A stretch of DNA of 40,605 nt from a virus. Taxonomy: Duplodnaviria; Heunggongvirae; Uroviricota; Caudoviricetes. Positions within the stretch are counted from its first letter, which is position 1. Each line of letters opens with the position of its first letter. The stretch lies in the IMG/VR virus record IMGVR_UViG_2734482545_000011; one strand, 5' to 3'. A program made the translations under genes and the position numbers. Positions 1 through 40,605 of the stretch are shown piece after piece. A model generated the notes under the pieces. It ran no database searches. It saw only the letters and a list, made by a program, of their open reading frames with translations, and had not been told where the DNA came from.

Positions 1-66
1 CTGCGTGGACTTCAGGTTGTCCTTCGCTTCGCGCGGGGTATGCCCCTTACTGCTGCCTTTACCCAT
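1..66 (-). CDS. J: tail tip/host specificity protein J, N-terminal 22 codons only (gene continues beyond window start)
   Basis: Reverse complement of 1-66 reads ATG GGT AAA GGC AGC AGT AAG GGG CAT ACC CCG CGC GAA GCG AAG GAC AAC CTG AAG TCC ACG CAG = MGKGSSKGHTPREAKDNLKSTQ, which matches the N-terminus of lambda gpJ as I recall it; lies directly downstream of I. Confidence 0.7.
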   Translation of the reverse strand, partial: MGKGSSKGHTPREAKDNLKSTQ

Positions 67-87
67 TCCTCACGCTCCATAAACGAC

Positions 88-108
88 AAAACCGCCCGCA
101 GGCGGTTT
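88..108 (-). terminator. short hairpin plus U-run between I and J (weak terminator-like or RNA structure)
   Basis: Plus strand aaACCGCCcgcaGGCGGTtt; on the minus strand a 6-bp GC stem is followed by TTTTGTCGTTT. Inside the tail operon, so at most an attenuator. Confidence 0.3.
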
Positions 109-126
109 CTCATAAAACATTTTGCA

Positions 127-747
127 TCAGCGACCAATCACCACAACCTGACCACCATCCCCTTCGTCTGCCGTGCTGATCTCCTGAGAAACCACACGTG
201 ACCCCACGCGCATTTCCCCGTACAGAACAGGCAGAACATTACCCTGGGCAACCATGTTATCCAGTGACGAGAAATACGTGTTCTGTTTGCCGTTATCTGT
301 ACTGGCTGCCGTGGGCGTCCTGGCTTTCGGTGCCAGCATCTGCGCCACACCACCCAGGATCATACTGGCCCCTGCTGCATACATACCCGATACAGCCGCG
401 GCCCCCAGCCAGCCCACAGGGTTCCACCATGCCACCGCAATCAGCGCCGCACCCAGCACCGCCTGAAACACACCGCCACTTTTGGCACCCGCCAGACGCG
501 GAACGATGTGGATCACGGCACCATTTGCCAGCGGTTCATTAAGACGGGCAGATAATTCATTTTCGCCTGCATCACGCCCGGCAATGCGCACCTGATACCA
601 GCCGTCGCTCAGTTTCTGACGAAATGCCGGGAGCTGTGTGGCCAGTGCCCGAAGGTCGATGCGGCGGCCAAATCGCTGCAAATCCCCGTAAAGGCAGATG
701 CGTGCCATGCCCGGTGACGCCAGAGGGAGTGTGTGCGTCGCTGCCAT
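127..747 (-). CDS. I: tail assembly protein I
   Basis: 206-aa ORF starting MAATHTLPLASPGMARICLYGDLQRFGRR and ending GEMRVGSRVVSQEISTADEGDGGQVVVIGR, recognised as lambda gpI-like; order M-L-K-I-J conserved. Confidence 0.85.
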   Translation of the reverse strand: MAATHTLPLASPGMARICLYGDLQRFGRRIDLRALATQLPAFRQKLSDGWYQVRIAGRDAGENELSARLNEPLANGAVIHIVPRLAGAKSGGVFQAVLGAALIAVAWWNPVGWLGAAAVSGMYAAGASMILGGVAQMLAPKARTPTAASTDNGKQNTYFSSLDNMVAQGNVLPVLYGEMRVGSRVVSQEISTADEGDGGQVVVIGR

Positions 748-1388
748 TTGTCGGTGTACCTCTCTCGTTTACTCAGTTGTTCAGGAATATGGTGCAGCAG
801 CTCGCCGTCACCACAGTAAATGGCGGCATGATTCGGCACCGATGAACCAAAACAGCACAGCAGCACATCGCCCGGCTGCGCCGTTGACAACGGCACCTGA
901 TACAGCCCTGTAGCCTCCAGATTATCCAGATAGAGATTCTGACCGTGACGCCACCAGTCATCCTCACGATGAAAATCCGGCATCTCAATCCCCGCCAGAT
1001 GGTAAGCGTCCCGGAACAGCGTGTAACAGTCCGTCACCCCGTGCTCAAAGCGCCGCCCGGTGAGATGCGGCACACAGCGGAACTTGTGAATCGCCCCGCG
1101 GCAGACCAGCCACCACGACAAATCACTCTGCACCTGCAGCCGCCGGTCGGCCTCACTCAGCCAGGGCAGACCACCGGGGTGGCTGTGGACCAGCGCCACA
1201 ATCTCACCCTGCATCTCTGCCTGCAGCCAGTCCTCCGGAGCCATCCGGAAATACTCCTCCGGCTCACCGGAAATATTCACGCAGGGAAAATATCTTTCCC
1301 CCTCCGGTGTTCTCACCACGAAGCCGCACGACTCCGCTGGCGCACATCGCCGGGCGTGCGCCAGAATCGCTGATTCTGTCTGTGTCAT
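609..1388 (-). CDS. K: tail tip assembly protein K (NlpC/P60 and MPN-like)
   Basis: 259-aa ORF MTQTESAILAHARRCAPAESCGFVV... with HSHPGG (JAB/MPN-like) and a C-terminal Cys/His region; lambda gpK-like. Its 3' end overlaps the I ORF by about 139 nt out of frame; the true stop or start of the neighbour may differ. Confidence 0.8.
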   Translation of the reverse strand: MTQTESAILAHARRCAPAESCGFVVRTPEGERYFPCVNISGEPEEYFRMAPEDWLQAEMQGEIVALVHSHPGGLPWLSEADRRLQVQSDLSWWLVCRGAIHKFRCVPHLTGRRFEHGVTDCYTLFRDAYHLAGIEMPDFHREDDWWRHGQNLYLDNLEATGLYQVPLSTAQPGDVLLCCFGSSVPNHAAIYCGDGELLHHIPEQLSKRERYTDKWQRRTHSLWRHRAWHASAFTGICSDLAAASTFGHWPHSSRHFVRN

Positions 1389-1393
1389 GGGAT

Positions 1394-2092
1394 TTACTGC
1401 GAAAGTTTGTTAATGGAAAGGAAGCCGCCAAAGTTGCCGACGTTATTGCGGAACTTACAACCGCTCAGGCATTTGCTGCATTTATCCTTCGTGATATCGG
1501 ACGTTGGCTGGTCATATTCATCCGCGACAGCCGGACCGTGATAACCGCACTCATCACCGCGATAGGTCCAGGTGCAGGTATTAGCAAGCATGATGCGCCC
1601 CGGAAAAACAGCGCCGTCCGTTTCCGTCGGCGTGGACAGTACAAAGGAGGCACTGACCGCGCTCAGTTCGCTGCACTGCTCAATACGCCAGCGGCTGATC
1701 ACCTCCTGCTCCGGATCGGCGTCACTGTTTCCGTTGACGAAGTTCACCGCATCCAGAAAACGGGCGTAAACCTTACGCCTGACCACCGTTCCGCCGACCA
1801 GACTCTGCAGGTCTTCCGCCATCCCGGTGACCATGCCGTGCAGATTAGAGACTTTCAGCGTTGGCCTTGCACTGGCACCTTTGCCGTTCATCTCAAATCC
1901 ACTCCCCTGAATGGGATAGGCCTGATACTGCCGACTCTGCCAGGTGACAGACTCTCCTTTCTCGTTCTGCTCATTGCAGAAAAAGTAGCGATCCCCGCCT
2001 ACCTCGGTCAGGTCGATTTCCCAGAGCACCACGCTGGCCGACTGCTCCGCACGAATGCATTCATTCAGCGTTTCCTGTTGTATGTCCTGCAT
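1394..2092 (-). CDS. L: minor tail protein L
   Basis: 232-aa [50 protein letters not shown]..., lambda gpL-like with C-terminal Cys cluster; position between M and K. Confidence 0.9.
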   Translation of the reverse strand: MQDIQQETLNECIRAEQSASVVLWEIDLTEVGGDRYFFCNEQNEKGESVTWQSRQYQAYPIQGSGFEMNGKGASARPTLKVSNLHGMVTGMAEDLQSLVGGTVVRRKVYARFLDAVNFVNGNSDADPEQEVISRWRIEQCSELSAVSASFVLSTPTETDGAVFPGRIMLANTCTWTYRGDECGYHGPAVADEYDQPTSDITKDKCSKCLSGCKFRNNVGNFGGFLSINKLSQ

Positions 2093-2430
2093 CAGATCAC
2101 CACTTCGTCAAACTGACACGAAAAATCGGTATAGGTGATATGTTCTGTCGCTGACCACGTTCGACACACCACTCTGATTTTTCTGTTAATACCCGGCGGG
2201 CGCCAAAAAAAAGATTTATAGCCTTCATGCCGGGCTAAAAATTTTTCAAATGAATCACGTTCATTCGCCTCAACTTTGAAATCACAGGTGAAAACGCGCA
2301 GAGAATGATTAAGTCCATTTGGACTTCGTTGCTCATAACCATCACCAAATCTTACAGTTTTTATCGATGGTTTATTTTCTGTTTTCATTCCATCCTCTGG
2401 TAACCAGTGAAATTCTTCCGTATTAGCCAC
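2092..2430 (-). CDS. M: minor tail protein M
   Basis: 112-aa [43 protein letters not shown]..., lambda gpM-like; directly downstream of the tape measure gene. Confidence 0.85.
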
Positions 2431-5400
2431 TTAACATTCCCCCATCACGTCGCATATTTAACAGATTGCCCTGCACCCGCTGATCAACCATCCCCATAAG
2501 TGCTTTTATTGCCTGAGGGCCAATCTCTCCATTCTGGCCGTCATTTTGAATAGTGATTTGGTATACAGGGGCATAGGTAATATCTCCGCCTCCATTACCA
2601 CTTTTACTATTAATAGCTCTGACACCAAGAGAACCATCGGAAGTTCGTGTTAATGGCATAATGGCTTCCGGTCCAGCCTCACCAAAAACACCAGCCCCTT
2701 TTGCAAAAGCAAAAAATTGCGGGGAATCATAAATACCGTTCGAATACGTGCTCAATGACGGAGACTCATAAACACCGCCCTTTGCATTCGGAATAAATTT
2801 ACTAATAGCACTCCCGATAGTTCCTAAAATCCCCCCAGAAGAACTGTTACTAATGCTGTCGAAAATCCCAGTAATTGAAGCCTTTAATGCTATTCGACTA
2901 AGATCCGAAATCACGGAAGTAGCGAAAGAACGAAAATTTGCCTTGCCTGTCGTGACAAAATCACCCAGCGCATCGGTCATCCCATCAAACATCTGAGTCG
3001 TGGTTGATTTTATCTGCTCACTGATATCCTTAGTGTCATCCAGCCAGTTATTGAATCCCTGGGAGGCACCACTAACCCAGTCTCCTGCCTGAATATCGAG
3101 CTGCTCGTTTTTCTGTCTGACAATTTCTTTTTCCCGTTCCAGAGCATCATTCAGAGCCTGCATTTTCTCTTGAAAAACATGATCTGACATTCCACGGGAT
3201 TTATCTGCATAGTCACGTTCAAGTTGCAGACGCTGATTGTTATATCCATGTTCAATCCGCAGTAATTCCTGCTGGCGTTGCTGATTTTTATCGCCAACCC
3301 CATAACCAGCAATCTGAATATCATACCCCTGCTGACGATTATCAATCGAAGCCTGCAATGAATCACGCCATGCTGTTATTTCGGCGGATTCCTTGATTAG
3401 CCTGTTATTTTTTTCAATCGCAACATTTTTCTCCATCAACGTGGTTATTTCTTCCCGGTGTAAGAGAAGCGATTTCTGATCCTGGGTTAATTTCGATGAT
3501 GGTCGTGACTCTAGGTCGGCAATCCGCTGACGCCACTTAACCAGTTCCTGTTCAGAGGAACTTAATTTAACGGTCAACTCAGCTTGTGAACTTAGTAACG
3601 CATTCTGTTGATTCAGATGATCAATCATTCGTTGGGCTGCATCATCAGAATAACCTTTCGCCTTTGGTTGCTTTGGATCTTTATAACGCTCATTTATTTG
3701 AGCGATAAGATTATTATATTCTTCCTTTGAATACTGATTCTTTAGCTTTTCCAGTTTTGCAAGTTCACTAGCTCTCTGCTGCTCCCGGGTCTGATATTGT
3801 TTTGAAAAGGCATCTGCTCTCTGTCTGAGTTCAATTCCTTCCTGTTGTCGCTTGTTGTAATCGTTTATTGATGAATTTAGTACGTCCTGAGCAATTTTTT
3901 CTGCTTGAAGTACGCCCAATTGCTGCTTTAATCGTGCCAGCCTTTTATTTTGAGCTCCGCCATCTCCAATGCCACCTAACCCGAAAACTCCGGGTCGGGT
4001 ATTTTTTTCTATTTCATCAATTTGACGGAGAACATCTGAGATTTTTTGATCAAGGGAGGCCTCACGGCCAATATCCAGCATGGAATCCCATGCCCATTTT
4101 GCGGAGTCTGCGACAGCTTTCCATGCAGTCTCAAGATAACCAAGATTTTCTTTAATCTGGTTGGTGCGCTGGATCATTGAGGATGAGTATTCTTCTGTCG
4201 CAATGCGGGCGGCCTCCTGCTGGTTCCCTTCATCCTGTAGCGCCTTAATCTGGTTATAAGTCGCAAGTGTCAGAAAATGGTACTGATCATTAAGTTTTGA
4301 TATGGCACTGACAGGATCCTTTGCAATTTCATTGAAGTCATTAACCAGTTGTTCGGTTGATATTCCTGTTACTTCGCTCGTTTTTACTATCGCTGTCGTC
4401 ACTTGCTCCAGCGAACTGCTCGCTACCTTTCCCGAACGCACAAGCTGATTTAATACTGCCGCCGCAGCACCAGTTGTCGAATCAGCCGCATTCCCGGCAC
4501 GTTGAGCTATATCGCCCAATTGCCCGCTGGTTGTCCCCAACTGATTTCCGGTAAGAATAAGAGATTTATTAAATTCGTCCTGCTCCTGAGAGCCTTTATA
4601 GTAAGCCAGTCCTAAGACCCCAACGGCTGCTGCGGCCAGGGTAAAAGGATTAATTAATCCCAGCACATAAGAACCTACACCTTTGATCGCCGGGCCAATC
4701 CCACCGAACATATCTTTTAGCTGGCCGCCCTGCTGCATTAACACCATAAATGGCGACTGACCAGTGGACAACCCAACAACAATATCCGTCATTTGTACAG
4801 GCAACATGCGCATAGCAAAAGCCGTTTGTTTTGCCGACATTCCGGTTTTGCTTAATTGTGATTGAGTAACCTCAAGCTCACTCCGCATAGCACGAAGTTT
4901 TCCAGAAAGCTCCTCATACATTTCAGGAGAAAGCATCCCCTTAGCTTTTGCTTCATTGAGCTGTTTCTGTTGTTCTACCAGACGATTAAAAGCAGTTCCG
5001 ACAGGATCAAGTTGAGCAATCAGACGTTGCAAAGCAACAACCTGTTCATCATGCGCTTTTGCTGCTTCTCGCTCTGCCTGAGCCTCTCCGGTAAGCTCTC
5101 GCCGTGTTTCCTGTATTTTTCGGCTATAATTCTCAAACTGAGAACCATTTATTTTCCCGGATGCAAACGCAGCATTAAGTTCATCATGCTGTTGTTCAAG
5201 ATTTCTTAGCGCCGCAGCCAGAGGGTCGATCTTGTCCAGCATTCTTTGAAAGGCCTGAGCCTGCGCTTCCTGCTGGGCGGCAGCAAGTTTTCCGGCCTTC
5301 TCGGCTTCTCTCTGCGCTTGCGCAACCCCGCTCAATTCCTCTGTGGTTTCATTAAGTTTACGGACAAGAAATTCATATTCTTCTTTATCAATAAGCCCTT

Positions 5401-5656
5401 TATCGAAAAATTTCTTTAATTCAGAATAGCGTCGACCGACAGTATCAATTGCGGCACCAACTGGATCAATAGCTGCTTTTAATTTTGCGAGCGCGTTCTT
5501 CTCATCTTCTGTTGCCTTAGTCACTTTCCCTGCGCTATTTGCAGCAGTTTCCCCAGCCTGCGTCATTTTGACTAATGAGGAGGTCAGATTGTCAGCATTA
5601 TTTTTCGCTCCAGTGCTATCAATAATTATTGCGAGACGCGAGGTTTGCTCTGCCAT
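2423..5656 (-). CDS. tail tape measure protein
   Basis: 1077-aa ORF rich in Ala/Gln/Glu/Lys coiled-coil sequence with a Gly-rich hydrophobic central segment; located between the GT chaperone and M. AGGAG Shine-Dalgarno upstream of the ATG. Confidence 0.9.
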
Positions 5657-5821: not shown

Positions 5822-6579
5822 CTACACACACTGCTCCTGAAAATACTGGTCATCCAGTGCAAAGATCACTGCTTCAAATTCATCGCGCTCAATCAATACC
5901 GGATGAGTGGCTAAATATTCATTTATCTCTGTCAGAGATAAAGGCAAAGGCACCCCAGCCATTCCAGCATAACGTCGGGCACGGGATATTACCGAATAGG
6001 CGTACAACAACTCCTTAAGCACCGGGTCTATTTCTGGTTCCGGTATCGGTGGCAACCTGAGTTTTTCTCGCTTCCATCTTGCCTTTTCCCCCCTTTCTCC
6101 CCCGAACTCCGATAACCACCGCTGGGCAGCTATGGCTTTTTTATCGTATCCTGCTTCTGCTGCTCTTTACCCTGGGCGATGCTGGCTGCTTCTGCAAGGA
6201 TCTGCCAGTACAACTCTGGATTCTGCTTAAGCAGCGCGATCCCTCGTTCTGCCGTATATTCCAGTGCAACCTCAACACCATTAACCAGTTCACCAACCCC
6301 TTTCCAGTCTTTCAGCAGATAACGAGCGGCATTATCAATGAGTAAATCATCAACAGAATCCACCTCGGAAACCTTTGAAATATCAAACTCCTTCGTTCCG
6401 ACGTGCAAACTGGCATCCATTTTCTCAATGTGGCGACGGATTAATGCATTACGGGAGCGATACTGATCGTTATCGCTGCTTGCCACCAACAGTTTTAACC
6501 CGTCTACAGGTTTTAAGTCCTTCATTGGCGTAAACCAGCGTTCTCCACCAATGATAATTTTCTGATTAAGAATAAACAT
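5822..6579 (-). CDS. tail assembly chaperone GT (-1 programmed frameshift fusion product)
   Basis: G frame ends ...QKQDTIKKP-stop at 6130; the -1 frame stays open from the slippery heptamer through to 5822 (continuation KKAIAAQRWLSEFGGERGEKARWKREKLRLPPIPEPE...QYFQEQCV). Frame arithmetic fits a -1 shift. Confidence 0.6.
6130..6579 (-). CDS. tail assembly chaperone G
   Basis: ORF between major tail and tape measure genes; start placed at an internal Met (MFILNQKIIIGG...) preceded by GAGG; ends with the A-AAA-AAG slippery site 2 codons before its stop. Confidence 0.7.
   Translation of the reverse strand: MFILNQKIIIGGERWFTPMKDLKPVDGLKLLVASSDNDQYRSRNALIRRHIEKMDASLHVGTKEFDISKVSEVDSVDDLLIDNAARYLLKDWKGVGELVNGVEVALEYTAERGIALLKQNPELYWQILAEAASIAQGKEQQKQDTIKKP
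6136..6142 (-). promoter_or_regulatory. -1 ribosomal frameshift slippery heptamer AAAAAAG
   Basis: Plus strand CTTTTTT at 6136-6142 is AAAAAAG on the minus strand, sitting just before the G stop codon (ATA AAA AAG CCA TAG). Confidence 0.6.
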
Positions 6580-6639
6580 CCATAACCTCATTCAATGCGT
6601 CCCCCTGTAGGGCAGTACCACAGGAGGAATAACGGAAAA

Positions 6640-7602
6640 TCAACTAATCGCCTCAGCACTGGCTTTTGCGATCACGGCAGCCGGGGAATTTTTTTTTCTG
6701 GTTATCGTAGGTGCTTCATCTGCTGCGGTAATGCTCAATTGAACCTGGATAATGTCGCTATTACCCCCATCAGGCCATTCACCTGACACCTGAACCTTCG
6801 GGAAACTGAAAGTGTATGCCCCCTCTCCATTCGAAAGCGTGAAGCTGAACGGAACTGTTTCTCCAGTCAGTGTTTTACTCCAGATTTCCCACGCGGCTTT
6901 AGACCATGAAAGCGTCACCGTACCGGACGGTGTAAAAGTAGTCGGAATATTTGCTCCTGCATAAGGCGAGCCAGTCCCGATACAACGCTGTGTCTGGAGT
7001 TTGTTATCGAACTGAATATCAAAACTGTCGATACAAAAACCGTTACCTCCGGCAACACCATTCAGGCTTACTGCTGAAACCTCCTTAAACGAATAACGTA
7101 GCTTTCCTGCACTATCCACAGGTTCGCCTTTGATAAAATTCGTATCATCGGCCTTTGATTCCCAGTCCAGTCCGGCAAAGGTTACGGTCGCTGTAATATC
7201 GCCGTCGTTAGGGATCTGCATTTTCCATGAGCCAACCTGCGCTCCTCTGACGACAGAGGCAATTCCGACATCGGACGCATAGGTCGCCAGAGAAAATGTT
7301 ATTCGCTCATTCCCCATTGTCAGAGAATCGCCTGACCATTCCGCGCCGAAACAGGATGCAAGAAAATCATCATGTTGACCCCAGCGAAATTTGGTACCAA
7401 CATCACCGCCGACATCCACAGTGCCAGGCGTCGCCCCCTGAGCCATCCGGGAGCCACCAATCTCATTATTTTCGCCTTTATTCTGGGTGGGTTTTACTCC
7501 CCAGCTTGTGCGTTTTAATAAACTCCAGTCACCACTTGCTGGCGTAGTGCCTGCAACCGTCTCCCGGATAAATGCCGAGATAACCTTTGCACCTGAACTC
7601 AC
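6640..7602 (-). CDS. major tail protein
   Basis: 320-aa ORF immediately upstream of the G/GT chaperone pair, Gly/Thr/Ser-rich beta-type composition; assigned by position in a conserved siphovirus gene order. Confidence 0.75.
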   Translation of the reverse strand: MSSGAKVISAFIRETVAGTTPASGDWSLLKRTSWGVKPTQNKGENNEIGGSRMAQGATPGTVDVGGDVGTKFRWGQHDDFLASCFGAEWSGDSLTMGNERITFSLATYASDVGIASVVRGAQVGSWKMQIPNDGDITATVTFAGLDWESKADDTNFIKGEPVDSAGKLRYSFKEVSAVSLNGVAGGNGFCIDSFDIQFDNKLQTQRCIGTGSPYAGANIPTTFTPSGTVTLSWSKAAWEIWSKTLTGETVPFSFTLSNGEGAYTFSFPKVQVSGEWPDGGNSDIIQVQLSITAADEAPTITRKKNSPAAVIAKASAEAIS

Positions 7603-7628
7603 AGGAGCCTCCTATGTCATTAATTGCG

Positions 7629-8021
7629 CTAGAGCGCGCGATATGGAATTTGAAGATTAAGCTGGAACCAGCCATTCTTTTCGCCAACGGCTATTGAGGA
7701 AACAGCCTGGTAACTGAGACGATCGTCATCCTGAAACTCAAACAGTTCCCGCAATTTATCGGCTGTCTCAGTAATGAGTTTTGAACCAGAACCTGCGGGG
7801 ACAAATAACTGAATAATGATTATCCCCGTGCGATAAACAACCGGCCCCGCGCCAATTTCATTAACTCCAGCCTGCCCGGGAATATTACTTAACCGCGCCC
7901 AGATTAACTTACCGGAAGGATCGAACGTTGGCCCGTTCGGATACAATACGTCTTTTCCATCAATAATCGTCTGTGCCGTCATTCTGGAAATAACCGTATT
8001 TCTGATTTCAGTAAACTTCAT
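7629..8021 (-). CDS. tail terminator / tail completion protein (gpU-like position)
   Basis: 130-aa ORF between connector genes and the major tail gene; assignment by synteny only. Confidence 0.45.
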   Translation of the reverse strand: MKFTEIRNTVISRMTAQTIIDGKDVLYPNGPTFDPSGKLIWARLSNIPGQAGVNEIGAGPVVYRTGIIIIQLFVPAGSGSKLITETADKLRELFEFQDDDRLSYQAVSSIAVGEKNGWFQLNLQIPYRAL

Positions 8022-8398
8022 TTGTAAGCCTGTAAAACACCATGAAAAGCGTTGGCATACACGCCAGTTGGCGCTTGTTGTGAATGACCGTTTTCAAGAG
8101 CCTCTGCATAAGGAAGGTTATTCTGGATATAAATAACCCCGTAATTTGCAGCTTTCGAAATAACCCCGATCCCACGCTGAACAGCAATCGTACCGTTCGG
8201 ATCCACGTTATCAGATATACCAAAATCGGGATGCTGTAACGACACCAGGTTGTTATTTCTGAAACGTCCGGTATCAACCGGAGCAGCAATATCAATAGCA
8301 GTAAGAATCTGCATAGCGATGTAGCGAATCTTCAGCCCTACATCTTCCTCAATCATCCCGGCAAATATTGACGGTTCTATATCCCATGCCTTTGCCAT
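8018..8398 (-). CDS. neck / tail completion protein (HK97 gp10-like position)
   Basis: 126-aa ORF MAKAWDIEPSIFAGMIEEDVGLKIRYIAMQILTAIDIAAPVDTGRFRNN...; position in the connector module. Confidence 0.45.
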   Translation of the reverse strand: MAKAWDIEPSIFAGMIEEDVGLKIRYIAMQILTAIDIAAPVDTGRFRNNNLVSLQHPDFGISDNVDPNGTIAVQRGIGVISKAANYGVIYIQNNLPYAEALENGHSQQAPTGVYANAFHGVLQAYK

Positions 8399-8782
8399 TT
8401 ACGCTCTCCTTAACTGGATAGAGTAAACTGATGCGGAAGGATCTACACTTGCTGTAATTACCTCGTATCGTTGTAACTGCCTTGATACAGGATCATAAAT
8501 CTCAATAATATGGTCGACAGCTGGTTTATCCGTAACCTCGCATACCAGAGCGGTTAATTTAAGGTCACCATGCAAAATATTAATCCCATCAATTCTGCCC
8601 AGCTTATAACGTGTCAACACGCCTCGCCCGGTATAGATTGCGGTGGATTCGCCGCCAGTTTCCGTCACAGGATCCCAGTGCCGGTGCGTAACGTAAGAAC
8701 CAGAAAAATCACTCACGGCGTCCGCTAAATCCTCATCAAAAGCAGCGGCAACCTCTGACTGAATCTCTTCACGAAGCCCCAT
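8399..8782 (-). CDS. head closure / head-tail joining protein
   Basis: 127-aa ORF in the connector module; synteny only. Confidence 0.4.
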   Translation of the reverse strand: MGLREEIQSEVAAAFDEDLADAVSDFSGSYVTHRHWDPVTETGGESTAIYTGRGVLTRYKLGRIDGINILHGDLKLTALVCEVTDKPAVDHIIEIYDPVSRQLQRYEVITASVDPSASVYSIQLRRA

Positions 8783-9177: not shown

Positions 9178-9180
9178 GTG

Positions 9181-9357: not shown

Positions 9358-9366
9358 ATGCCCCCC

Positions 9367-9389: not shown

Positions 9390-9399
9390 GTTTGAATGT

Positions 9400-14009: not shown

Positions 14010-14011
14010 AA

Positions 14012-32109: not shown

Positions 32110-32360
32110 GAATCAACTCCCATCAGCTTTTTCGTAGTAGTTTTATTTCTGCCAATAGTTAAAATTACATCAGCAGAAAATAATCCGTTTGATGCATGAG
32201 CGATTTTTTCAGCGTAATTTGTTTCGCCGGTATATTCTGTGCGAGGCAATTTTCCGTTATCCATCCATTTGTAGATTGCTCTTTGGCTGACACCACAAAC
32301 GTCGGCCACAACAGAAACGCGAACAGTTTTGATTACATCTTCAAGTGTTTTCTGGTTCAT
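32106..32360 (-). CDS. ydaS: Cro-like HTH regulator YdaS
   Basis: Start placed at MNQKTLEDVIKTVRVSVVADVCGVSQRAIYKWMDNG (HTH) with GAGGG RBS; divergent from racR. Confidence 0.65.
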   Translation of the reverse strand: MNQKTLEDVIKTVRVSVVADVCGVSQRAIYKWMDNGKLPRTEYTGETNYAEKIAHASNGLFSADVILTIGRNKTTTKKLMGVDS

Positions 32361-32439
32361 ATCACCCTCACAATGTGAACTTTGAGTACATGCTATAACA
32401 GAACTGACAGTACATTCAAGAGTGAATATCATTGAACTT
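32361..32439. promoter_or_regulatory. racR-ydaS divergent promoter/operator region
   Basis: 79-bp intergenic region with the near-palindrome TCACAATGTGA (32368-32378) and two direct AGTACAT repeats (32385-32391, 32409-32415). Confidence 0.45.
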
Positions 32440-32859
32440 ATGGTTCATGAAGATAAAGCGCGTAAAGAGTTCGCCAGTAGGCTTGCGCTAGCCTGTGAAA
32501 ACGCTGGTTATGAACAACATGGAAGGCAGGCAGAAATTGCCCGTCGAATGAAATTAACACCAAAAGCGGTTAGCAAATGGTTTAATGGCGAAACAATTCC
32601 TCGCCGAGAGAAATTAAGGGAATTAGCAACACTCATTGGAACAACACCAACCTATCTTTTGGGAGAGGATACAGAAGAAAGTGGACAGGTACGTTTCTAT
32701 CAGGAGTTAAATCCAAGACAAAAAATCATCATTGACCTTCTGGACGAGCTCCCTGACAGTGAGACAGATGAACTTTTAAAAACTCTTGAGGAGAAAAAAC
32801 AGAAGTACAATGCAATTTACGAAGAGCTAGCACGAAAGAAAAAACAAAAAGCCTCTTAA
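32440..32859 (+). CDS. racR: prophage repressor RacR (CI-like)
   Basis: HTH segment GRQAEIARRMKLTPKAVSKWFNGETIP; divergent from the Cro-like gene; acidic and basic C-terminal tail. Confidence 0.75.
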   Translation: MVHEDKARKEFASRLALACENAGYEQHGRQAEIARRMKLTPKAVSKWFNGETIPRREKLRELATLIGTTPTYLLGEDTEESGQVRFYQELNPRQKIIIDLLDELPDSETDELLKTLEEKKQKYNAIYEELARKKKQKAS

Positions 32860-32929
32860 ACCAGCATAAATCCGGTAGCGTCCCCCTCCGGGTTTGTGCT
32901 TCACTTTATCCCATCTCATTTTTTTACAC

Positions 32930-32982
32930 ACAAAATGTACTTATAGTACTTTACATCAATGAACACAAAGTACATTATATAC
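32930..32982 (+). promoter_or_regulatory. operator-like repeats downstream of racR (OL-like region)
   Basis: ATGTACT-TAT-AGTACT inverted repeat (32935-32950) and a further AGTACAT (32969-32975) beside TATATA; the same heptamer as in the racR-ydaS region. Confidence 0.35.
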
Positions 32983-33149
32983 CTACCAACCCACCCCGCC
33001 CCACAGAACGCAGGGCAATACTTCGAGTTACCAGGCAGTGGTCAGGGGTTAAGTAGCCAGCCCGAGGCGTATGAACATGACGGCAGGGTTCAGATTTTGC
33101 AGTGCAGCAGGTTTCAGTTCCGCCACCCGGCGTTAAGGGGAGAGATAAG

Positions 33150-33284
33150 ATGGTGCATTACGAAGTAGTTCAGTATTTGATGGATTGTTGCGGTATCACT
33201 TACAACCAGGCTGTGCAGGCTTTACGCAGCAACGACTGGGATCTCTGGCAGGCAGAAGTCGCTATACACAGCAACAAGATGTGA
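33150..33284 (+). CDS. ydaG: YdaG-like small protein
   Basis: 44 aa MVHYEVVQYLMDCCGITYNQAVQALRSNDWDLWQAEVAIHSNKM with AAGGGGAGAG RBS. Confidence 0.55.
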   Translation: MVHYEVVQYLMDCCGITYNQAVQALRSNDWDLWQAEVAIHSNKM

Positions 33285-33294
33285 GATTCGCAAA

Positions 33295-33450
33295 ATGCAA
33301 AAAATCGACCTCGGCAACAACGAATCCCTGGTGTGCGGCGTGTTCCCCAACCAGGATGGAACGTTCACTGCCATGACGTATACCAAAAGCAAAACATTTA
33401 AAACCGAAACTGGTGCGCGCCGATGGTTGGAGAAGCACACAGTAAGCTAA
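33295..33450 (+). CDS. ydaF: YdaF-like small protein
   Basis: 51 aa MQKIDLGNNESLVCGVFPNQDGTFTAMTYTKSKTFKTETGARRWLEKHTVS; stop overlaps the sieB stop on the opposite strand. Confidence 0.55.
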   Translation: MQKIDLGNNESLVCGVFPNQDGTFTAMTYTKSKTFKTETGARRWLEKHTVS

Positions 33451-33935
33451 CGATTAAAACGTCTACTCCTGCTGTTCCAGAATAACTTCATAAAATGGGA
33501 GTATTTTTCGGTGACGAGATAATAAGAACAGTTTGCGCTATCACTCTGATGTTGAATGATGCCCTTCCGTTCTAATTTTTTCATAACCGGGTTACGGCAA
33601 GGAGAAGTGATAATAAGATTTCCTGTTTTAAGGAAATCTTTAAATACAGCGATTTCTTTCTCAGATAAACGAAGCAATACTCGTTGCTCTGGTAGTAATG
33701 AATAATGCTTTTGAATATGTGCTCGCAATCTTGAGAAGGAAATGGCGACCACGAAAGAAAAGGCAAAAACGATAATCTGAAAGAGCCAAGGTATTTCAGT
33801 ATAAGCATTGAATGCGACAGTAAACTCTTTCGGTATCAGCCAGAGAGTGAGACCAAAAATGATAATCGTATACATAAGTATTTCGAGTGGCTCGTTAGCA
33901 AAAAGTTTCAACAATGGAGTAAATACATCCAACAT
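33447..33935 (-). CDS. sieB: superinfection exclusion protein SieB
   Basis: 162 aa from the internal ATG: MLDVFTPLLKLFANEPLEILMYTIIIFGLTLWLIPKEF... with two TM segments; recognised as Rac SieB. Confidence 0.85.
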   Translation of the reverse strand: MLDVFTPLLKLFANEPLEILMYTIIIFGLTLWLIPKEFTVAFNAYTEIPWLFQIIVFAFSFVVAISFSRLRAHIQKHYSLLPEQRVLLRLSEKEIAVFKDFLKTGNLIITSPCRNPVMKKLERKGIIQHQSDSANCSYYLVTEKYSHFMKLFWNSRSRRFNR

Positions 33936-34376
33936 ATCAATAACTCTCAACTGTAAGGGTATTGAAATGTTAACACAAGCTCTCGCTGTAGGGGTATAGC
34001 CGAGACCACCGAAGCCCGGAGGTGGTGAAATAAAACCGGGCACAACACGAAGGCGCATTTCCGATATCCATAAAGAGTCGGTCTTGTCTGTTAAATTTAA
34101 ATGGTGGGAGTGCGCCTCCGGTTGTAAATAACGACATTGCTGTGTGTAGTCCTGGCGGCATCAGTTTTTTTCTTGAAGTTCGGCTGATGTCCGCCCTTTT
34201 TAAAGTGAATTTTGTGATGCGGTGAATGCGGCTAAGCGCACGTGGCACAGTTAAAAGTCATGTTAGTCCTTATTGGTTTGGGTGGGAAAGCCGACTGTAA
34301 TTGTTAACTGGTTGCAGTCACCTGGAGGCACCAGGCACCGCATCAACAAAGTTCATTTGTAAAAATGGAGATAATT

Positions 34377-34598
34377 ATGATTGCACATCACTTCGGAACT
34401 GATGAAATACCACGTCAGTGTGTGACTCCTGGCGATTATGTTCTTCATGAAGGCCGGACATATATTGCCTCGGCAAACAATATTAAAAAGCGAAAACTAT
34501 ATATTCGTAACCTGACCACAAAAACATGCATTACTGACCGCATGATTAAAGTCTTCCTCGGTCGTGATGGTTTACCTGTAAAGGCGGAGTCATGGTGA
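34377..34598 (+). CDS. kilR: FtsZ-inhibiting killing protein KilR
   Basis: 73 aa [73 protein letters not shown]. Confidence 0.85.
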
Positions 34599-34768
34599 TG
34601 ACTAAGAAAATAAAATGTGCTTACCACCTTTGCAAAAAAGACGTTGAAGAAAGCAAAGCTATTGAAAGAATGCTTCACTTCATGCACGGGATTTTATCAA
34701 AAGACGAACCGAGAAAATATTGCAGTGAAGCTTGTGCCGAAAAAGACCAGATGGCACATGAACTTTAA
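34598..34768 (+). CDS. ydaE: zinc-ribbon small protein YdaE
   Basis: 56 aa [56 protein letters not shown]; start overlaps the kilR stop (TGATG). Confidence 0.7.
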   Translation: MTKKIKCAYHLCKKDVEESKAIERMLHFMHGILSKDEPRKYCSEACAEKDQMAHEL

Positions 34769-34842
34769 TTAATTGACTATTCGAAACTGAATTTATGCCA
34801 GAAATGGCAGGTATTCGCTCAACCTTAATTAAGGAGAAAAAC

Positions 34843-35118
34843 ATGATTACCAATTATGAAGCCACTGTTGTAACTACCGATGACATTGTTCACGAGGTGA
34901 ATCTGGAAGGAAAGCGCATTGGCTACGTAATTAAAACAGAAAATAAAGAAACCCCATTCACTGTGGTTGATATCGATGGTCCATCAGGCAACGTAAAAAC
35001 ACTTGATGAAGGTGTCAAAAAAATGTGCCTGGTGCATATCGGAAAGAATCTGCCCGCAGAAAAAAAAGCCGAATTTCTGGCAACTCTAATTGCAATGAAA
35101 TTAAAAGGTGAAATCTGA
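34843..35118 (+). CDS. racC: RacC
   Basis: 91 aa MITNYEATVVTTDDIVHEVNLEGKRIGYVIKTENKETPFTVVDIDGPSGN... with AAGGAG RBS. Confidence 0.8.
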   Translation: MITNYEATVVTTDDIVHEVNLEGKRIGYVIKTENKETPFTVVDIDGPSGNVKTLDEGVKKMCLVHIGKNLPAEKKAEFLATLIAMKLKGEI

Positions 35119-35219
35119 AAGAAATAGCCTGCGTATGGCGCAGGCTATGAACAGTGTGTATCCGGCAAGATCATTCACTGAACAAAACGAATTTTAATCT
35201 GAGTTGAGGTTAAAAAACA

Positions 35220-37820
35220 ATGAGCACAAAACCACTCTTCCTGTTACGGAAAGCGAAAAAATCATCCGGTGAACCTGACGTCGTCCTGTGGGCAAGCAAC
35301 GATTTTGAATCGACCTGTGCCACTCTGGACTACCTGATCGTTAAGTCAGGTAAAAAACTGAGCAGCTATTTTAAAGCTGTTGCCACGAATTTTCCTGTCG
35401 TTAATGACCTGCCCGCTGAAGGTGAGATCGATTTTACCTGGAGTGAACGCTATCAACTCAGCAAAGACTCCATGACATGGGAACTAAAACCGGGAGCAGC
35501 ACCAGACAACGCTCACTATCAAGGCAATACCAACGTCAACGGCGAAGACATGACTGAGATTGAGGAGAATATGCTACTCCCAATTTCTGGCCAGGAACTG
35601 CCCATTCGTTGGCTTGCTCAACACGGCAGCGAAAAACCGGTAACGCACGTTTCACGCGACGGACTCCAGGCATTACACATTGCTCGGGCTGAAGAACTAC
35701 CGGCTGTTACTGCCCTGGCTGTTTCCCACAAAACCAGCCTGCTCGACCCGCTGGAAATTCGCGAACTCCACAAACTGGTTCGTGACACTGACAAAGTTTT
35801 CCCTAATCCTGGTAATTCAAACCTGGGACTGATAACTGCTTTTTTCGAAGCATACCTGAACGCTGACTACACCGATCGAGGACTGCTGACAAAAGAGTGG
35901 ATGAAGGGTAATCGTGTTTCACACATCACTCGCACGGCTTCCGGTGCTAATGCTGGCGGCGGAAACCTCACCGATCGCGGCGAAGGTTTCGTACACGATC
36001 TGACGTCACTGGCGCGGGACGTAGCCACTGGCGTACTGGCCCGTTCAATGGATCTGGACATCTATAACCTTCATCCGGCACACGCTAAACGCATTGAGGA
36101 AATTATCGCTGAAAATAAACCGCCCTTTTCTGTTTTCCGCGACAAATTCATCACCATGCCTGGCGGGCTGGATTATTCCCGCGCCATCGTGGTTGCGTCC
36201 GTAAAAGAAGCACCAATTGGGATCGAGGTCATCCCCGCGCACGTCACTGAATATCTGAACAAAGTACTGACTGAAACCGATCATGCCAACCCTGATCCGG
36301 AAATCGTGGATATTGCCTGCGGTCGCTCCTCTGCCCCGATGCCGCAGCGAGTAACAGAAGAAGGAAAACAGGATGATGAAGAAAAACCGCAACCATCTGG
36401 AACAACGGCAGTTGAACAGGGAGAGGCTGAAACAATGGAACCGGACGCAACTGAACATCATCAGGACACGCAGCCGCTGGATGCTCAGTCACAGGTAAAT
36501 TCTGTTGATGCGAAATATCAGGAACTGCGGGCAGAACTCCATGAAGCCCGGAAAAACATTCCATCAAAAAATCCTGTCGATGCCGATAAATTGCTTGCTG
36601 CATCACGTGGTGAATTTGTTGACGGAATTAGCGACCCGAACGATCCGAAATGGGTAAAGGGGATCCAGACTCGCGATTGTGTGTACCAGAACCAGCCAGA
36701 AACGGAAAAAACCAGCCCGGATATGAATCAACCTGAGCCAGTAGTGCAACAGGAACCGGAAATAGCCTGCAATGCCTGCGGCCAGACTGGCGGGGATAAC
36801 TGCCCTGACTGTGGTGCGGTGATGGGCGACGCAACATACCAGGAAACATTCGATGAAGAGAGTCAGGTTGAAGCTAAGGAAAATGATCCGGAGGAAATGG
36901 AAGGCGCTGAACATCCGCACAATGAGAATGCTGGCAGCGATCCGCATCGCGATTGCAGTGATGAAACTGGCGAAGTCGCAGATCCCGTAATCGTAGAAGA
37001 CATAGAGCCAGGTATTTATTACGGAATTTCGAATGAGAATTACCACGCGGGTCCCGGTGTCAGTAAGTCTCAGCTCGATGACATTGCTGATACTCCGGCA
37101 CTGTATTTGTGGCGTAAAAATGCCCCCGTGGACACCACAAAGACAAAAACGCTCGATTTAGGAACCGCTTTCCACTGCCGGGTACTTGAGCCGGAAGAAT
37201 TCAGTAACCGCTTTATCGTAGCACCTGAATTTAACCGCCGGACAAACTCCGGAAAAGAAGAAGAGAAAGCGTTTCTGAGGGAATGCGCAAGCACAGGAAA
37301 AACGGTTATCACTGCCGAAGAAGGCCGGAAAATTGAACTCATGTATCAGAGCGTTATGGCTTTGCCGCTGGGGCAATGGCTTGTTGAAAGCGCCGGACAC
37401 GCTGAATCATCAATTTACTGGGAAGATCCTGAAACAGCAATTTTGTGTCGGTGCCGTCCGGACAAAATTATCCCTGAATTTCACTGGATCATGGACGTGA
37501 AAACTACGGCGGATATTCAACGATTCAAAACCGCTTATTACGACTACCGCTATCACGTTCAGGATGCATTCTACAGTGACGGTTATGAAGCACAGTTTGG
37601 AGTGCAGCCAACTTTCGTTTTTCTGGTTGCCAGCACAACTATTGAATGCGGACGTTATCCGGTTGAAATTTTCATGATGGGCGAAGAAGCAAAACTGGCA
37701 GGTCAGCTGGAATATCACCGCAATCTGCGAACCCTGGCTGACTGCCTCAATACCGATGAATGGCCAGCTATTAAGACGTTATCACTGCCCCGCTGGGCTA
37801 AGGAATATGCAAATGACTAA
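35220..37820 (+). CDS. recE: exodeoxyribonuclease VIII (RecE), full length
   Basis: 866-aa [54 protein letters not shown]...; same length as K-12 RecE as I recall; C-terminal nuclease domain present. Confidence 0.95.
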
Positions 37821-38622
37821 GCAACCACCAATCGCAAAAGCCGATCTGCAAAAAACTCAGGGAAACCGTGCACCAGCAGCAATTAAAAATAACGACGTGA
37901 TTAGTTTTATTAACCAGCCATCAATGAAAGAGCAACTGGCAGCAGCTCTTCCACGCCATATGACGGCTGAACGTATGATCCGTATCGCCACCACAGAAAT
38001 TCGTAAAGTTCCGGCGTTAGGAAACTGTGACACTATGAGTTTTGTCAGTGCAATCGTACAGTGTTCACAGCTCGGACTTGAGCCCGGTAGCGCCCTCGGT
38101 CATGCATATTTACTGCCTTTTGGTAATAAAAACGAAAAGAGCGGTAAAAAAAACGTTCAGCTAATCATTGGCTATCGCGGCATGATTGATCTGGCTCGCC
38201 GTTCAGGTCAAATCGCCAGCCTGTCAGCCCGTGTTGTCCGTGAAGGTGACGAGTTTAATTTCGAATTTGGCCTTGATGAAAAGTTAATACACCGCCCAGG
38301 AGAAAACGAAGATGCCCCTGTTACCCACGTCTATGCTGTCGCAAGACTGAAAGACGGAGGTACTCAGTTTGAAGTTATGACGCGCAAACAGATTGAGCTG
38401 GTGCGCAGCCAGAGTAAAGCTGGTAATAACGGGCCGTGGGTAACTCACTGGGAAGAAATGGCAAAGAAAACGGCTATTCGTCGCCTGTTCAAATATCTGC
38501 CCGTATCAATTGAGATCCAGCGTGCAGTATCAATGGATGAAAAGGAACCACTGACAATCGATCCTGCAGATTCCTCTGTATTAACCGGGGAATACAGTGT
38601 AATCGATAATTCAGAGGAATAA
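37813..38622 (+). CDS. recT: recombinase RecT (single-strand annealing protein)
   Basis: 269 aa from [57 protein letters not shown]...; start overlaps the recE stop by 8 nt. Confidence 0.95.
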
Positions 38623-38677
38623 TTCAGCCTGGCGGTGTAATGCACCGCCAACTTGAAATATTTTTATGAGAAAAATT

Positions 38678-38827
38678 ATGAGATATGACAATGTTAAACC
38701 ATGTCCATTTTGTGGTTGTCCATCAGTAACGGTGAAAGCCATTTCAGGATATTACCGAGCGAAGTGTAACGGATGCGAATCCCGAACCGGTTATGGTGGA
38801 AGTGAAAAAGAAGCACTCGAACGATGA
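38678..38827 (+). CDS. lar: restriction alleviation protein Lar/RalR (49 codons to an in-frame TGA)
   Basis: MRYDNVKPCPFCGCPSVTVKAISGYYRAKCNGCESRTGYGGSEKEALER then TGA; four-Cys zinc-ribbon pattern. The same frame continues 14 more codons (NKRTTGNNNGGVHV) to TAA at 38870-38872. Confidence 0.65.
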   Translation: MRYDNVKPCPFCGCPSVTVKAISGYYRAKCNGCESRTGYGGSEKEALER

Positions 38828-38852
38828 AATAAACGAACCACTGGAAATAATA

Positions 38853-39053
38853 ATGGAGGTGTTCATGTATAAAATTACCGCCACTATTGAAAAGGAAGGT
38901 GGCACTCCTACTAACTGGACAAGATATTCAAAATCTAAACTAACGAAATCAGAATGCGAAAAAATGCTCTCAGGTAAAAAAGAAGCAGGCGTTTCCAGAG
39001 AGCAGAAAGTAAAACTGATAAATTTTAATTGCGAGAAACTTCAGTCCTCGTGA
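38853..39053 (+). CDS. ydaC: YdaC-like protein
   Basis: MEVFMYKITATIEKEGGTPTNWTRYSKSKLTKSECEKMLSGKKEAGVSREQKVKLINFNCEKLQSS; alternative start at the second ATG (38865) after GGAGGT. Confidence 0.55.
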   Translation: MEVFMYKITATIEKEGGTPTNWTRYSKSKLTKSECEKMLSGKKEAGVSREQKVKLINFNCEKLQSS

Positions 39054-39152
39054 ATTGCATTGTATTCAAATTAAAACTTCATAGCTGATTATTAATAATC
39101 AACATCGGGCGTCAATTTAAGTCTAACATTGGCGCCTGCCAGAGGTGATGCG

Positions 39153-39368
39153 ATGGCACAAGTAATCTTTAATGAAGAGTGGATGGTTGAATACGGCCTG
39201 ATGCTTCGCACTGGTCTGGGGGCCAGACAAATTGAAGCATACCGCCAGAACTGTTGGGTGGAAGGCTTCCACTTCAAACGAGTATCTCCTTTAGGGAAGC
39301 CAGACAGTAAGCGAGGGATTATCTGGTATAACTATCCAAAGATAAATCAGTTTATCAAAGACTCATGA
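39153..39368 (+). CDS. xis: excisionase (Xis, YdaQ-like)
   Basis: 71 aa [71 protein letters not shown] with GAGGTG RBS; immediately upstream of the integrase. Confidence 0.7.
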
Positions 39369-39369
39369 T

Positions 39370-40605
39370 ATGTCTAAATTACCAACAGGTGTCGAGATTC
39401 GAGGTAAATACATTCGCATCTGGTTCATGTTTCGAGGAAAACGATGTCGGGAAACATTGAAAGGCTGGGAGGTTACTAACAGTAACATTAAAAAAGCCGG
39501 GAATTTAAGAGCGTTGATAGTTCATGAAATCAATTCCGGTGAGTTTGAGTATTTAAGACGTTTTCCCCAGTCCAGCACTGGGGCAAAAATGGTGACAACG
39601 AGGGTCATAAAAACGTTCGGGGAGCTTTGTGATATCTGGACAAAAATTAAAGAAACAGAGTTAACAACAAACACAATGAAGAAAACGAAATCACAATTAA
39701 AAACACTCAGGATAATAATTTGTGAGAGTACTCCGATATCGCATATTCGTTATAGCGATATCTTAAACTACCGGAATGAACTGCTGCATGGAGAAACGCT
39801 TTACCTGGATAATCCAAGATCCAACAAAAAAGGAAGAACCGTGCGCACAGTTGATAACTATATCGCCCTGCTCTGTTCGTTGTTACGTTTTGCGTATCAG
39901 TCGGGATTTATATCAACCAAACCATTTGAAGGAGTAAAGAAATTACAGAGAAACAGAATAAAGCCTGACCCGTTATCTAAAACAGAATTCAATGCATTAA
40001 TGGAAAGTGAAAAAGGACAGAGCCAGAACTTGTGGAAATTTGCCGTATACTCCGGGCTTCGTCACGGGGAACTGGCTGCTCTGGCGTGGGAGGATGTGGA
40101 TTTCGAGAAGGGAGTTGTGAATGTCAGAAGAAACCTGACGATACTGGATATGTTCGGTCCCCCAAAAACAAATGCGGGGATCCGGACGGTAACACTACTG
40201 CAGCCTGCTCTTGAAGCACTGAAGGAGCAATACAAACTGACCGGGCATCATCGCAAAAGCGAAATCACTTTTTATCATCGGGAGTACGGCAGAACCGAAA
40301 AGCAAAAACTGCATTTTGTTTTCATGCCCAGAGTGTGTAACGGAAAACAGAAACCTTATTACTCGGTAAGCAGTTTGGGTGCGAGATGGAATGCAGCAGT
40401 AAAACGTGCTGGTATTCGCCGCCGTAATCCGTACCATACGCGGCATACTTTTGCCTGCTGGCTGTTGACGGCAGGAGCGAACCCGGCGTTTATAGCCAGC
40501 CAGATGGGGCATGAAACTGCGCAGATGGTGTATGAAATTTACGGTATGTGGATTGATGACATGAACGACGAACAGGTAGCCATGTTGAATGCGCGGTTAT
40601 CGTAG
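39370..40605 (+). CDS. intR: tyrosine integrase IntR
   Basis: 411 aa; C-terminal catalytic region with HTRHTFACWLL (H-x-x-R) and tyrosine in QMVYEIYGMW; window ends on its TAG stop. Confidence 0.95.
   Translation: MSKLPTGVEIRGKYIRIWFMFRGKRCRETLKGWEVTNSNIKKAGNLRALIVHEINSGEFEYLRRFPQSSTGAKMVTTRVIKTFGELCDIWTKIKETELTTNTMKKTKSQLKTLRIIICESTPISHIRYSDILNYRNELLHGETLYLDNPRSNKKGRTVRTVDNYIALLCSLLRFAYQSGFISTKPFEGVKKLQRNRIKPDPLSKTEFNALMESEKGQSQNLWKFAVYSGLRHGELAALAWEDVDFEKGVVNVRRNLTILDMFGPPKTNAGIRTVTLLQPALEALKEQYKLTGHHRKSEITFYHREYGRTEKQKLHFVFMPRVCNGKQKPYYSVSSLGARWNAAVKRAGIRRRNPYHTRHTFACWLLTAGANPAFIASQMGHETAQMVYEIYGMWIDDMNDEQVAMLNARLS

Follow-up and report, generated by a model that had tools for sequence, protein, structure and literature searches.

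The DNA stretch analysed here, 40,605 nucleotides of IMG/VR virus record IMGVR_UViG_2734482545_000011 (the window, always meant at its full length), is one lambdoid prophage, which aligns end to end with positions 2723177–2763809 of Escherichia coli NCTC10444 (NZ_LR134092.1) at 99.87% identity, the differences being 26 substitutions, one 27-nt gap and one 1-nt gap. In the RefSeq annotation of NCTC10444 the matching stretch has the gene order of a lambdoid prophage: tail, head, terminase, trkG, lysis, Q, nin-like and replication genes on the minus strand, then the divergent repressor and cro, and on the plus strand kilR, racC, recE, recT, ralR, xisR and intR. We consider it highly probable that the window holds a temperate prophage of the Rac lineage with open late genes, that Rac of E. 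coli K-12 is a deletion derivative of it, and that this particular copy is probably defective in its tail.

The right end of the window is the stop codon of intR; in NCTC10444, ttcA starts 50 nt further, and the attachment (att) core within ttcA begins 59 nt past the window end. The left end lies 66 nt inside gene J. Past it, NCTC10444 carries the remainder of J as well as lom, a tail-fibre gene of 3.1 kb, tfa and sitABCD, and attR, which adjoins uspF, is 11.8 kb away from this end; lom, stf and tfa, all outside the window, appear intact in the NCTC10444 annotation. A 43-nt att repeat (48869–48911 and 13376–13418 of the NCTC10444 extracts L001 and L004, respectively) sets the ends of the element ~52.5 kb apart. 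Both att sites are outside the window, which makes up about three quarters of the element and would represent 40.6 kb of the genome of a temperate lambdoid siphovirus that resides in the 5′ end of ttcA. Inside the NCTC10444 prophage, an operon for iron/manganese transport, sitABCD, sits between attR and tfa (L004 13376–17227 and L001 1–440), in the slot held by pinR-ynaE-ynaM in K-12 Rac, and extends the element to its ~52.5 kb. No tRNA genes were found in the window.

The genes by which the window can be compared with K-12 Rac, together with the immunity cassette, are arranged as follows.

39370–40605, integrase gene intR
39153–39368, excisionase gene xisR
38871–39049, minus strand, RalA small RNA (sRNA)
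38865–39053, rcbA, with a stop codon at R63
38678–38827, ralR, with a stop codon at W50
33150–40605, mixed strands, the Rac left arm as a whole, which also contains ydaG, ydaF, sieB (minus strand), kilR, ydaE, racC, recE (35220–37820) and recT (37813–38622)
32440–32859, plus strand, DicA-like HTH_3 repressor, 139 amino acids (aa), of the immunity cassette (32106–32983)
32106–32360, minus strand, Cro-like protein, 84 aa, of the same cassette
32376–32397, 32400–32421 and 32960–32981, operator-like repeats TGAAC-N4-5-AGTACAT, on either side of the repressor gene
31687–32109, minus strand, CII-like YdaT
30817–31674, minus strand, YdaU
30064–30810, minus strand, DnaC-like YdaV
29280–30041, minus strand, full-length DUF1627/YdaW protein
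28848–29264, minus strand, DUF977 protein
18430–19887, minus strand, trkG, a potassium transporter moron with a G+C content (GC) of 0.38

The K-12 reference was the Rac region of strain MG1655 (NC_000913.3, 1411899–1434958), compared with the window by BLAST; L002 denotes coordinates of this MG1655 extract. The gene-by-gene comparison proposed in an earlier note on this DNA gave four colinear blocks with exact breakpoints.

L002 4001–11619, window 40605–32984, 98.7% identical (intR to ydaG)
L002 12679–15202, window 32115–29592, 98.3% (ydaT, ydaU, ydaV and the first 151 codons of ydaW)
L002 15201–17631, window 20469–18039, 99.3% (rzpR/rzoR, trkG and ynaK)
L002 17630–19389, window 6481–4722, 99.9% (ydaY and ynaA)

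The colinear series goes on in NCTC10444 with lomR, stfR and tfaR. Three segments are deleted from K-12, and a 2-nt microhomology is found at all three junctions (TA, AA and CA).

Deletion 1, window 20470–29591, 9.1 kb (nin, Q and lysis region)
Deletion 2, window 6482–18038, 11.6 kb (packaging, head and connector region, from ParB to tube)
Deletion 3, window 1–4721 plus 3.6 kb past the window start, 8.4 kb in total (C-terminus of the tape measure to lom)

The K-12 genes at these scars are fragments of genes that are complete here or in NCTC10444: ydaW of the DUF1627 protein, rzpR of Rz, ynaK of the 262-aa ParB-like protein (its first 86 aa), ydaY of the gpG-like chaperone (the C-terminal 116 aa of G), ynaA of the 1077-aa tape measure (its first 312 residues, mapping to 5656–4721) and lomR of lom. 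K-12 Rac is the element seen here with three segments lost by illegitimate deletion, with IS5 inserted in lom and with a different immunity cassette. Among 5,426 complete E. coli genomes, no more than 348 and 335 have the K-12 deletion junctions, versus 695 (~13%) that hold the undeleted late half of the window at a coverage of at least 80%.

Of the four marks of the Rac lineage looked for, three are present, the fourth being racR with ydaS. The IntR/XisR recombination module (98.8% and 100% identical to the K-12 proteins) is, judged from NCTC10444, inserted at ttcA; the left arm forms one 98.7% block whose proteins are 97.7–100% identical; and ydaT-U-V and trkG are flanked by late remnants in the K-12 order, in the blocks of 98.3%, 99.3% and 99.9% with proteins at 99.2–100% (YdaT 99.3%, YdaU 99.6%, YdaV 99.2%, TrkG 99.6%, and Rz1 100% to RzoR). 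RecE (866 aa, 99.2%) and RecT (269 aa, 98.5%) are full length, and KilR (98.6%) and SieB (99.4%) are there as well. The earlier note, which had called the element a Rac-type prophage with an undamaged recE/recT pair, with kilR, sieB and ydaT, and a reference for what Rac has lost in K-12, was right on each of these: wherever K-12 Rac keeps sequence, the window is colinear with it at 98.3–99.9% DNA identity, and it has late genes present and open where the three deletions left K-12 with stumps.

Lambdoid phages are mosaics, and one may ask whether the element is not really Rac, being instead an unrelated mosaic lambdoid phage that shares the ttcA integration module and the recET arm, in which case its late genes would say nothing of K-12. 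The immunity cassette, unlike that of K-12, and the tail tip (window 1–2095), which has another GC and matches mEp460 and lambda-like phages, are what such a mosaic would predict. The K-12 stumps rzpR/rzoR-trkG-ynaK, ydaY-ynaA and lomR, however, follow one another in an unchanged order inside the full-length genes, with 98–99.9% DNA identity, and every junction is a clean 2-nt microhomology deletion. This colinearity and near-identity refute the proposal, to which we give almost no credence. A practical product of the comparison is an exact map of ydaW, rzpR, ynaK, ydaY, ynaA and lomR of K-12 as the scars of three microhomology deletions.

Two genes that the earlier note had listed, racR and ydaS, are not in the window: the K-12 segment that holds them (L002 11620–12678) has neither a DNA nor a tblastn match there, and window 32116–32983 is occupied by an unrelated repressor and Cro, which have only the turn of the helix-turn-helix in common with RacR and YdaS. 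The match of the repressor to the DicA subfamily scores below the threshold. The DicA-like type is found in 1,047 genomes versus 1,085 for racR-ydaS, meaning that the immunity cassettes of Rac-site prophages are of at least two kinds, of roughly equal frequency, and therefore results obtained with racR/ydaS of K-12 are not transferable to elements like this one. No Pfam match to the self-cleavage domain Peptidase_S24 was obtained for the repressor, and no antirepressor was recognised among the open reading frames (ORFs) scanned, so neither feature looked for as the mark of an SOS-inducible prophage (an S24 repressor or a known antirepressor) was found. Since the repressor matched no LexA-type S24 domain, simple induction by SOS or mitomycin is not a given. 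Because it is a short DicA-like helix-turn-helix protein, a LexA-like cleavage route appears unlikely, and induction would not be expected to run via RecA-mediated self-cleavage of the repressor.

A further difference from K-12 lies next to the recombination genes, where ralR encodes 49 aa, versus 64 in K-12, and R63 of rcbA is likewise a stop codon; the RalA antitoxin sRNA is intact (225 bits). The window equals NCTC10444 in this region, where the same short ralR and rcbA (DUF1187) are annotated, and ralR is the same in vB_EcoS-666R9. Since these sequences agree, the two stops represent a circulating allele and not a private mutation.

The late region, which K-12 has mostly lost, runs on the minus strand from the Q-like gene to J.

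24298–24897, minus strand, DUF1367 protein
24008–24298, minus strand, YbcO nuclease
23469–24011, minus strand, Q-type antiterminator candidate DUF1133
23069–23098, minus strand, candidate pR′ promoter
23022–23041, minus strand, candidate tR′ terminator
22535–22721, minus strand, STnc100 sRNA (Rfam, 86.6 bits)
20983–21198, minus strand, S21-type dual-start pinholin
20486–20983, minus strand, signal-arrest-release (SAR) endolysin
20025–20489, minus strand, Rz, with the embedded Rz1 lipoprotein at 20084–20269
16392–16601, minus strand, 69-aa ORF
15294–16388, minus strand, small terminase TerS (Terminase_2; Pfam, PHROGs)
14012–15313, minus strand, large terminase TerL (T4-type, Terminase_6N/6C; Pfam, PHROGs)
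12603–14009, minus strand, portal (DUF4055)
11507–12619, minus strand, MuF-like protein
10638–11402, minus strand, scaffold (DUF6651)
9400–10539, minus strand, capsid
9181–9357, minus strand, 58-aa ORF
8782–9177, minus strand, adaptor Ad1
8399–8782, minus strand, head closure Hc1
8018–8398, minus strand, Neck1 (Pfam and PHROGs for the connector and tube block)
7629–8021, minus strand, tail terminator
6640–7602, minus strand, tail tube
5822–6525, minus strand, chaperones G and GT with a programmed −1 frameshift (PHROG 313, Phage_TAC_18, reading frames and heptamer)
2423–5656, minus strand, tape measure, 1077 aa (TMP_2, TMP_4, Tape_meas_lam_C)
2092–2430, minus strand, minor tail protein M (Phage_min_tail at full profile length)
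1394–2092, minus strand, minor tail protein L (Phage_tail_L at full profile length)
609–1388, minus strand, tail protein K (JAB and NlpC/P60), 259 aa, its stop codon deleted and its C-terminal V replaced by GHWPHSSRHFVRN
127–747, minus strand, tail protein I, 206 aa, without residues 33–41 (RVKTGAEAI) (Pfam Lambda_tail_I; alignment with NCTC10444 and mEp460)
1–66, minus strand, first 22 codons of tail-tip gene J (translation MGKGSSKGHTPREAKDNLKSTQ), mapping to the gpJ start in NCTC10444

Downstream of the Q-like DUF1133 gene, whose product has a weak Phage_antitermQ match, the order is a promoter-like site, a terminator-like hairpin and STnc100. The late set that follows the Q-type gene comprises the pinholin, the SAR endolysin, the spanins, the trkG moron, TerS and TerL, an HK639-like head, connectors, tube, G/GT, tape measure and a lambda-like M-L-K-I-(J) tail tip. 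The late ORFs are all open, and every one except G, Neck1 and Hc1 matches a Pfam profile at or above the curated cut-off, mostly near the full profile. Holin, lysozyme and Rz families are matched, and these sequences were read directly. TerS, TerL, portal, scaffold and capsid are full length, with profiles covered end to end except for the capsid, which belongs to the P22 coat family (P22_CoatProtein) and, like the tail terminator, has a partial profile match only. The placement of G, Neck1 and Hc1 comes from PHROGs only, and so, for the most part, does that of Ad1, whose Pfam match is weak. The connectors, tail terminator, tube, G/GT and tape measure are all present. In the G/GT gene, the slippery heptamer A_AAA_AAG (6142–6136) lies 6 nt before the G stop codon (6130), and the −1 T frame is open to 5822, adding 105 further codons.

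A check of the about 25 late genes revealed no frameshift or premature stop, and the earlier note's description of the lysis, packaging and head modules as intact agrees with these open, full-length ORFs. Its description of the tail holds for the tube, G/GT, tape measure, M and L, which are open (M and L at full length), and fails at the tip, where J is mostly outside the window and K and I are altered by a 27-nt deletion.

This deletion, in frame and located at window 649/650 relative to NCTC10444, removed a stretch that held the stop codon of K and lay inside the overlapping gene I. As a result, 9 residues are missing from the Lambda_tail_I domain of I, and K is longer by 12 residues at its end. 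The 27 nt are kept in NCTC10444 and in the isolated phage mEp460, which is 98% identical to the window in protein I and 97% in K, and the lambda I sequence aligns in the same way. A shorter GTG start proposed for gene I by the Prokaryotic Genome Annotation Pipeline (PGAP) was set aside; I starts at ATG 747. A 44-nt probe across the deletion junction has no match in the 5,426 complete genomes, and the closest flank matches among those listed all contain the 27 nt, so that the deletion would be either private to this copy or an assembly error. Being in frame, it falls outside a literal search for frameshifts and stops, yet it is the kind of defect at which such a search is aimed. In lambda, gpI is required for tail assembly. 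Because 9 residues are gone from the ubiquitin-like domain of this essential assembly protein and the C-terminus of K is altered, the tails of this copy are probably defective or of poor infectivity.

We note a mosaic joint near 2095, at the L/M boundary, with a GC of 0.58 to the left and 0.47 to the right; the J-I-K-L segment is 91–95% identical to mEp460 and other lambda-like phages, and the remaining late region has HK639-like head genes.

Compared with a 98.8%-identical relative, the ratio of non-synonymous to synonymous substitution rates (dN/dS) over 23 late genes is 0.19 (121.8 synonymous and 78.2 non-synonymous differences), a value with little power for the head genes, which are almost invariant between the two copies compared. 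This ratio points to purifying selection on the late genes. An inducible relative, KingRac, has been published: a lambdoid prophage of 46,834 bp at ttcA in a mouse-gut E. coli, it is weakly inducible with mitomycin C, yields tailed particles, and lysogenises K-12 in the mouse gut, replacing Rac (Frazao et al. 2019, PMC6731689). Since its late genes appear to be under purifying selection and it has this inducible relative, the lineage as a whole is most likely a live temperate siphovirus, and its terminase is of the headful type. A T4-type terminase with Terminase_6 domains is the type found in headful packagers.

What this copy does is a separate matter. It is expected to be able to excise, replicate, lyse its host and assemble heads, whereas tail-tip assembly is doubtful. 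Int and Xis should still excise it; the K-12 Rac proteins, to which IntR and XisR are so similar, are excision-proficient (PMC4632033). The intact frameshift signal and Rz1, the open and full-length late ORFs, the low dN/dS and the KingRac precedent (PMC6731689) would also suit a fully functional inducible temperate phage that excises, replicates, packages by headful, lyses its host and releases infectious particles. Set against this are the private 9-residue loss in I and the 12-residue extension of K, the location of J and the fibres outside the window, a repressor without S24 domain, the weak induction of KingRac itself, and the size of the whole element, which with sitABCD reaches 52.5 kb in NCTC10444, to be held against the capacity of the capsid. 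We regard such a fully functional phage as rather unlikely here, and judged from its genes this copy is equally doubtful as a source of infectious particles; undeleted copies such as NCTC10444 would probably yield them.

The opposite view is that of a domesticated, non-infectious prophage kept for its cargo (trkG, recET, sitABCD, defence-like genes and TolA-like lipoproteins), on which decay has not yet acted. It is suggested by the many morons and cargo genes, by the nonsense codons in ralR and rcbA, by the private K/I lesion, and by K-12, which shows the lineage decaying in place. The fivefold synonymous excess in the late genes, the lack of any frameshift or stop in some 25 of them, and the presence of the 20-kb late region at a coverage of at least 80% in 695 genomes of varied sources all speak against domestication, which we consider improbable.

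Several points weigh against the preferred reading of the window as a Rac-lineage temperate prophage with a working late region and a damaged tail tip. The operator-like repeats are repeat matches, and the candidate tR′ and pR′ are consensus-scan matches, in both cases only. The phage collection searched contains no isolated virion with this exact late module, and KingRac, full-size, at ttcA and Rac-related like the present element, is likened to it by its published description and not by sequence, at 46,834 bp versus 52.5 kb for the NCTC10444 copy. For J, lom, the tail fibre, tfa and both att sites, all beyond the window, the near-identical NCTC10444 is the sole source. The 27-nt deletion may, as said, be an assembly error, and its effect on protein I is a prediction from the altered domain.

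GenBank phage records that share the late region were considered as evidence of viability and rejected, being in-silico prophage excerpts. In the phage collection, the matches at a coverage of at least 80% are only the vB_EcoS-xxxRn series (ON470581–ON470616; PHASTER predictions, several cut at contig ends) and SPF_0923. The latter, entitled ‘Salmonella phage SPF_0923, complete genome’ (ON032529.1), holds uspF, ompN, nifJ and sitABCD, the same flank as NCTC10444, and is a chromosomal excerpt. This should serve as a warning that a number of GenBank ‘phage’ entries for the element are stretches cut from chromosomes and not isolated viruses.

The remaining genes of the window, among them a cargo pair and a gene pair near the terminase genes, are as follows.

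27687–28649, minus strand, HEPN-domain protein, 320 aa, with the Rx4H motif RNHLVH
26670–27671, minus strand, GNAT-fold protein, 333 aa
25711–26049, plus strand, DUF1971 protein in a 36% GC island
21996–22424 and 21450–21845, minus strand, two ORFs with a TolA C-terminal domain, predicted lipoproteins (PF06519, NCBIfam TolA, lipobox-like VAGC/IIGC)
17504–18292, minus strand, ParB_N-domain protein, 262 aa (ParB_N, PHROGs)
16579–17511, minus strand, TAGT/GREB1-like glycosyltransferase, 310 aa (PF20691, E=4e-34; PHROGs)

The ParB_N and TAGT genes overlap by 8 nt, lie directly upstream of the 69-aa ORF and terS, and have dN/dS values of 0.12 and 0.19, indicating purifying selection. The overlapping pair recurs in all four other contexts inspected (a Pantoea prophage and three other contigs), and in three of the four it adjoins, directly upstream, terminases of three different types. 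For the called genes within 5 kb of these pairs no TET_JBP match is on record. A self-contained, packaging-linked system that glycosylates phage DNA or a packaging protein without a TET/JBP oxidase, with ynaK of K-12 as its dead stump, is a long shot that we put forward as speculation.

The HEPN and GNAT genes form a low-GC cargo pair between the replication and nin-like genes. The structural model of the GNAT-fold protein (predicted local distance difference test score, pLDDT, 89.8) has HAT1, MYST and GNAT matches. The pair recurs with an identical 15-nt spacer in a mobilisable island of Aeromonas caviae, beside SIR2 genes; each gene is also found alone, which weakens the idea of an obligate two-gene system. 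PADLOC 2.0 and NCBIfam contain neither of the two proteins, PADLOC gave no match for the HEPN, GNAT-like, TAGT, TolA-like, DUF1971 or SieB proteins, and sequence searches of the PDB gave no match.

The genes of the two predicted lipoproteins with a TolA domain III are located between the late terminator/STnc100 and the holin gene, where morons are carried in lambdoid phages. In the periplasm, their products might serve as decoys of TolA and so counter colicins or filamentous phages. PGAP calls ynaK and tolA pseudogenes in NCTC10444; these calls were rejected as lesions, the ORFs here being complete (262 aa and, with the TolA domain, 142 aa), and they are mis-scored because they were judged against K-12 or host models. 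The DUF1971 gene is flanked by a short, very hydrophobic ORF (26268–26360, minus strand; MLVLKCALAIAAVMAIYCLAVVLMERLSD) and by ~750 bp of 32% GC with no convincing ORF (24950–25700), around which Rfam gave no match; these flanks could encode a small membrane toxin or be regulatory DNA. The 1-nt indel at 25693 precedes the annotated start codon of the DUF1971 gene and was therefore ruled out as a frameshift.

In sum, full-length Rac-type prophages are already known: they are common, annotated in RefSeq and described in the literature, an inducible example included. The window carries little weight as a discovery, and its value lies in the deletion map, the two immunity cassettes and the warning about database records. 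Full-sized Rac-like prophages with LT-II, Rac-SA53 among them, were described by Jobling (cited in PMC5917428); in the window, no LT-II or pertussis-like toxin genes were found. Sp10/CP-933R of E. coli O157:H7 is at ttcA (Liu et al., PMC4632033), and it and Rac-SA53 (KU052037) share the integration site and the recET/int arm with the present element and differ in late regions and cargo, and in the early half of the window the DNA shared with Rac-SA53 amounts to 41%, with an identity of 92%. For the head, the nearest isolated phage is HK639 (NC_016158), with the same gene order, lengths within 4 residues and 50–75% amino acid identity (gp06 capsid 75%, gp05 scaffold 65%, gp04 MuF 50% and gp03 portal 69%; gp07 is 62% identical to the 58-aa ORF), whereas it has another terminase, other tail-shaft genes and put-RNA antitermination. 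K-12 Rac shares by far the most with the window: colinear and at 98.3–99.9% DNA identity, it has the same integrase, excisionase and ttcA site, left arm (ralR/RalA, recET, racC, ydaE, kilR, sieB and ydaF/G), ydaT-U-V, trkG, rzoR, and the tape-measure and chaperone fragments. It differs in the 29 kb missing in three deletions, IS5 in lom, racR-ydaS immunity, and full-length ralR and rcbA.

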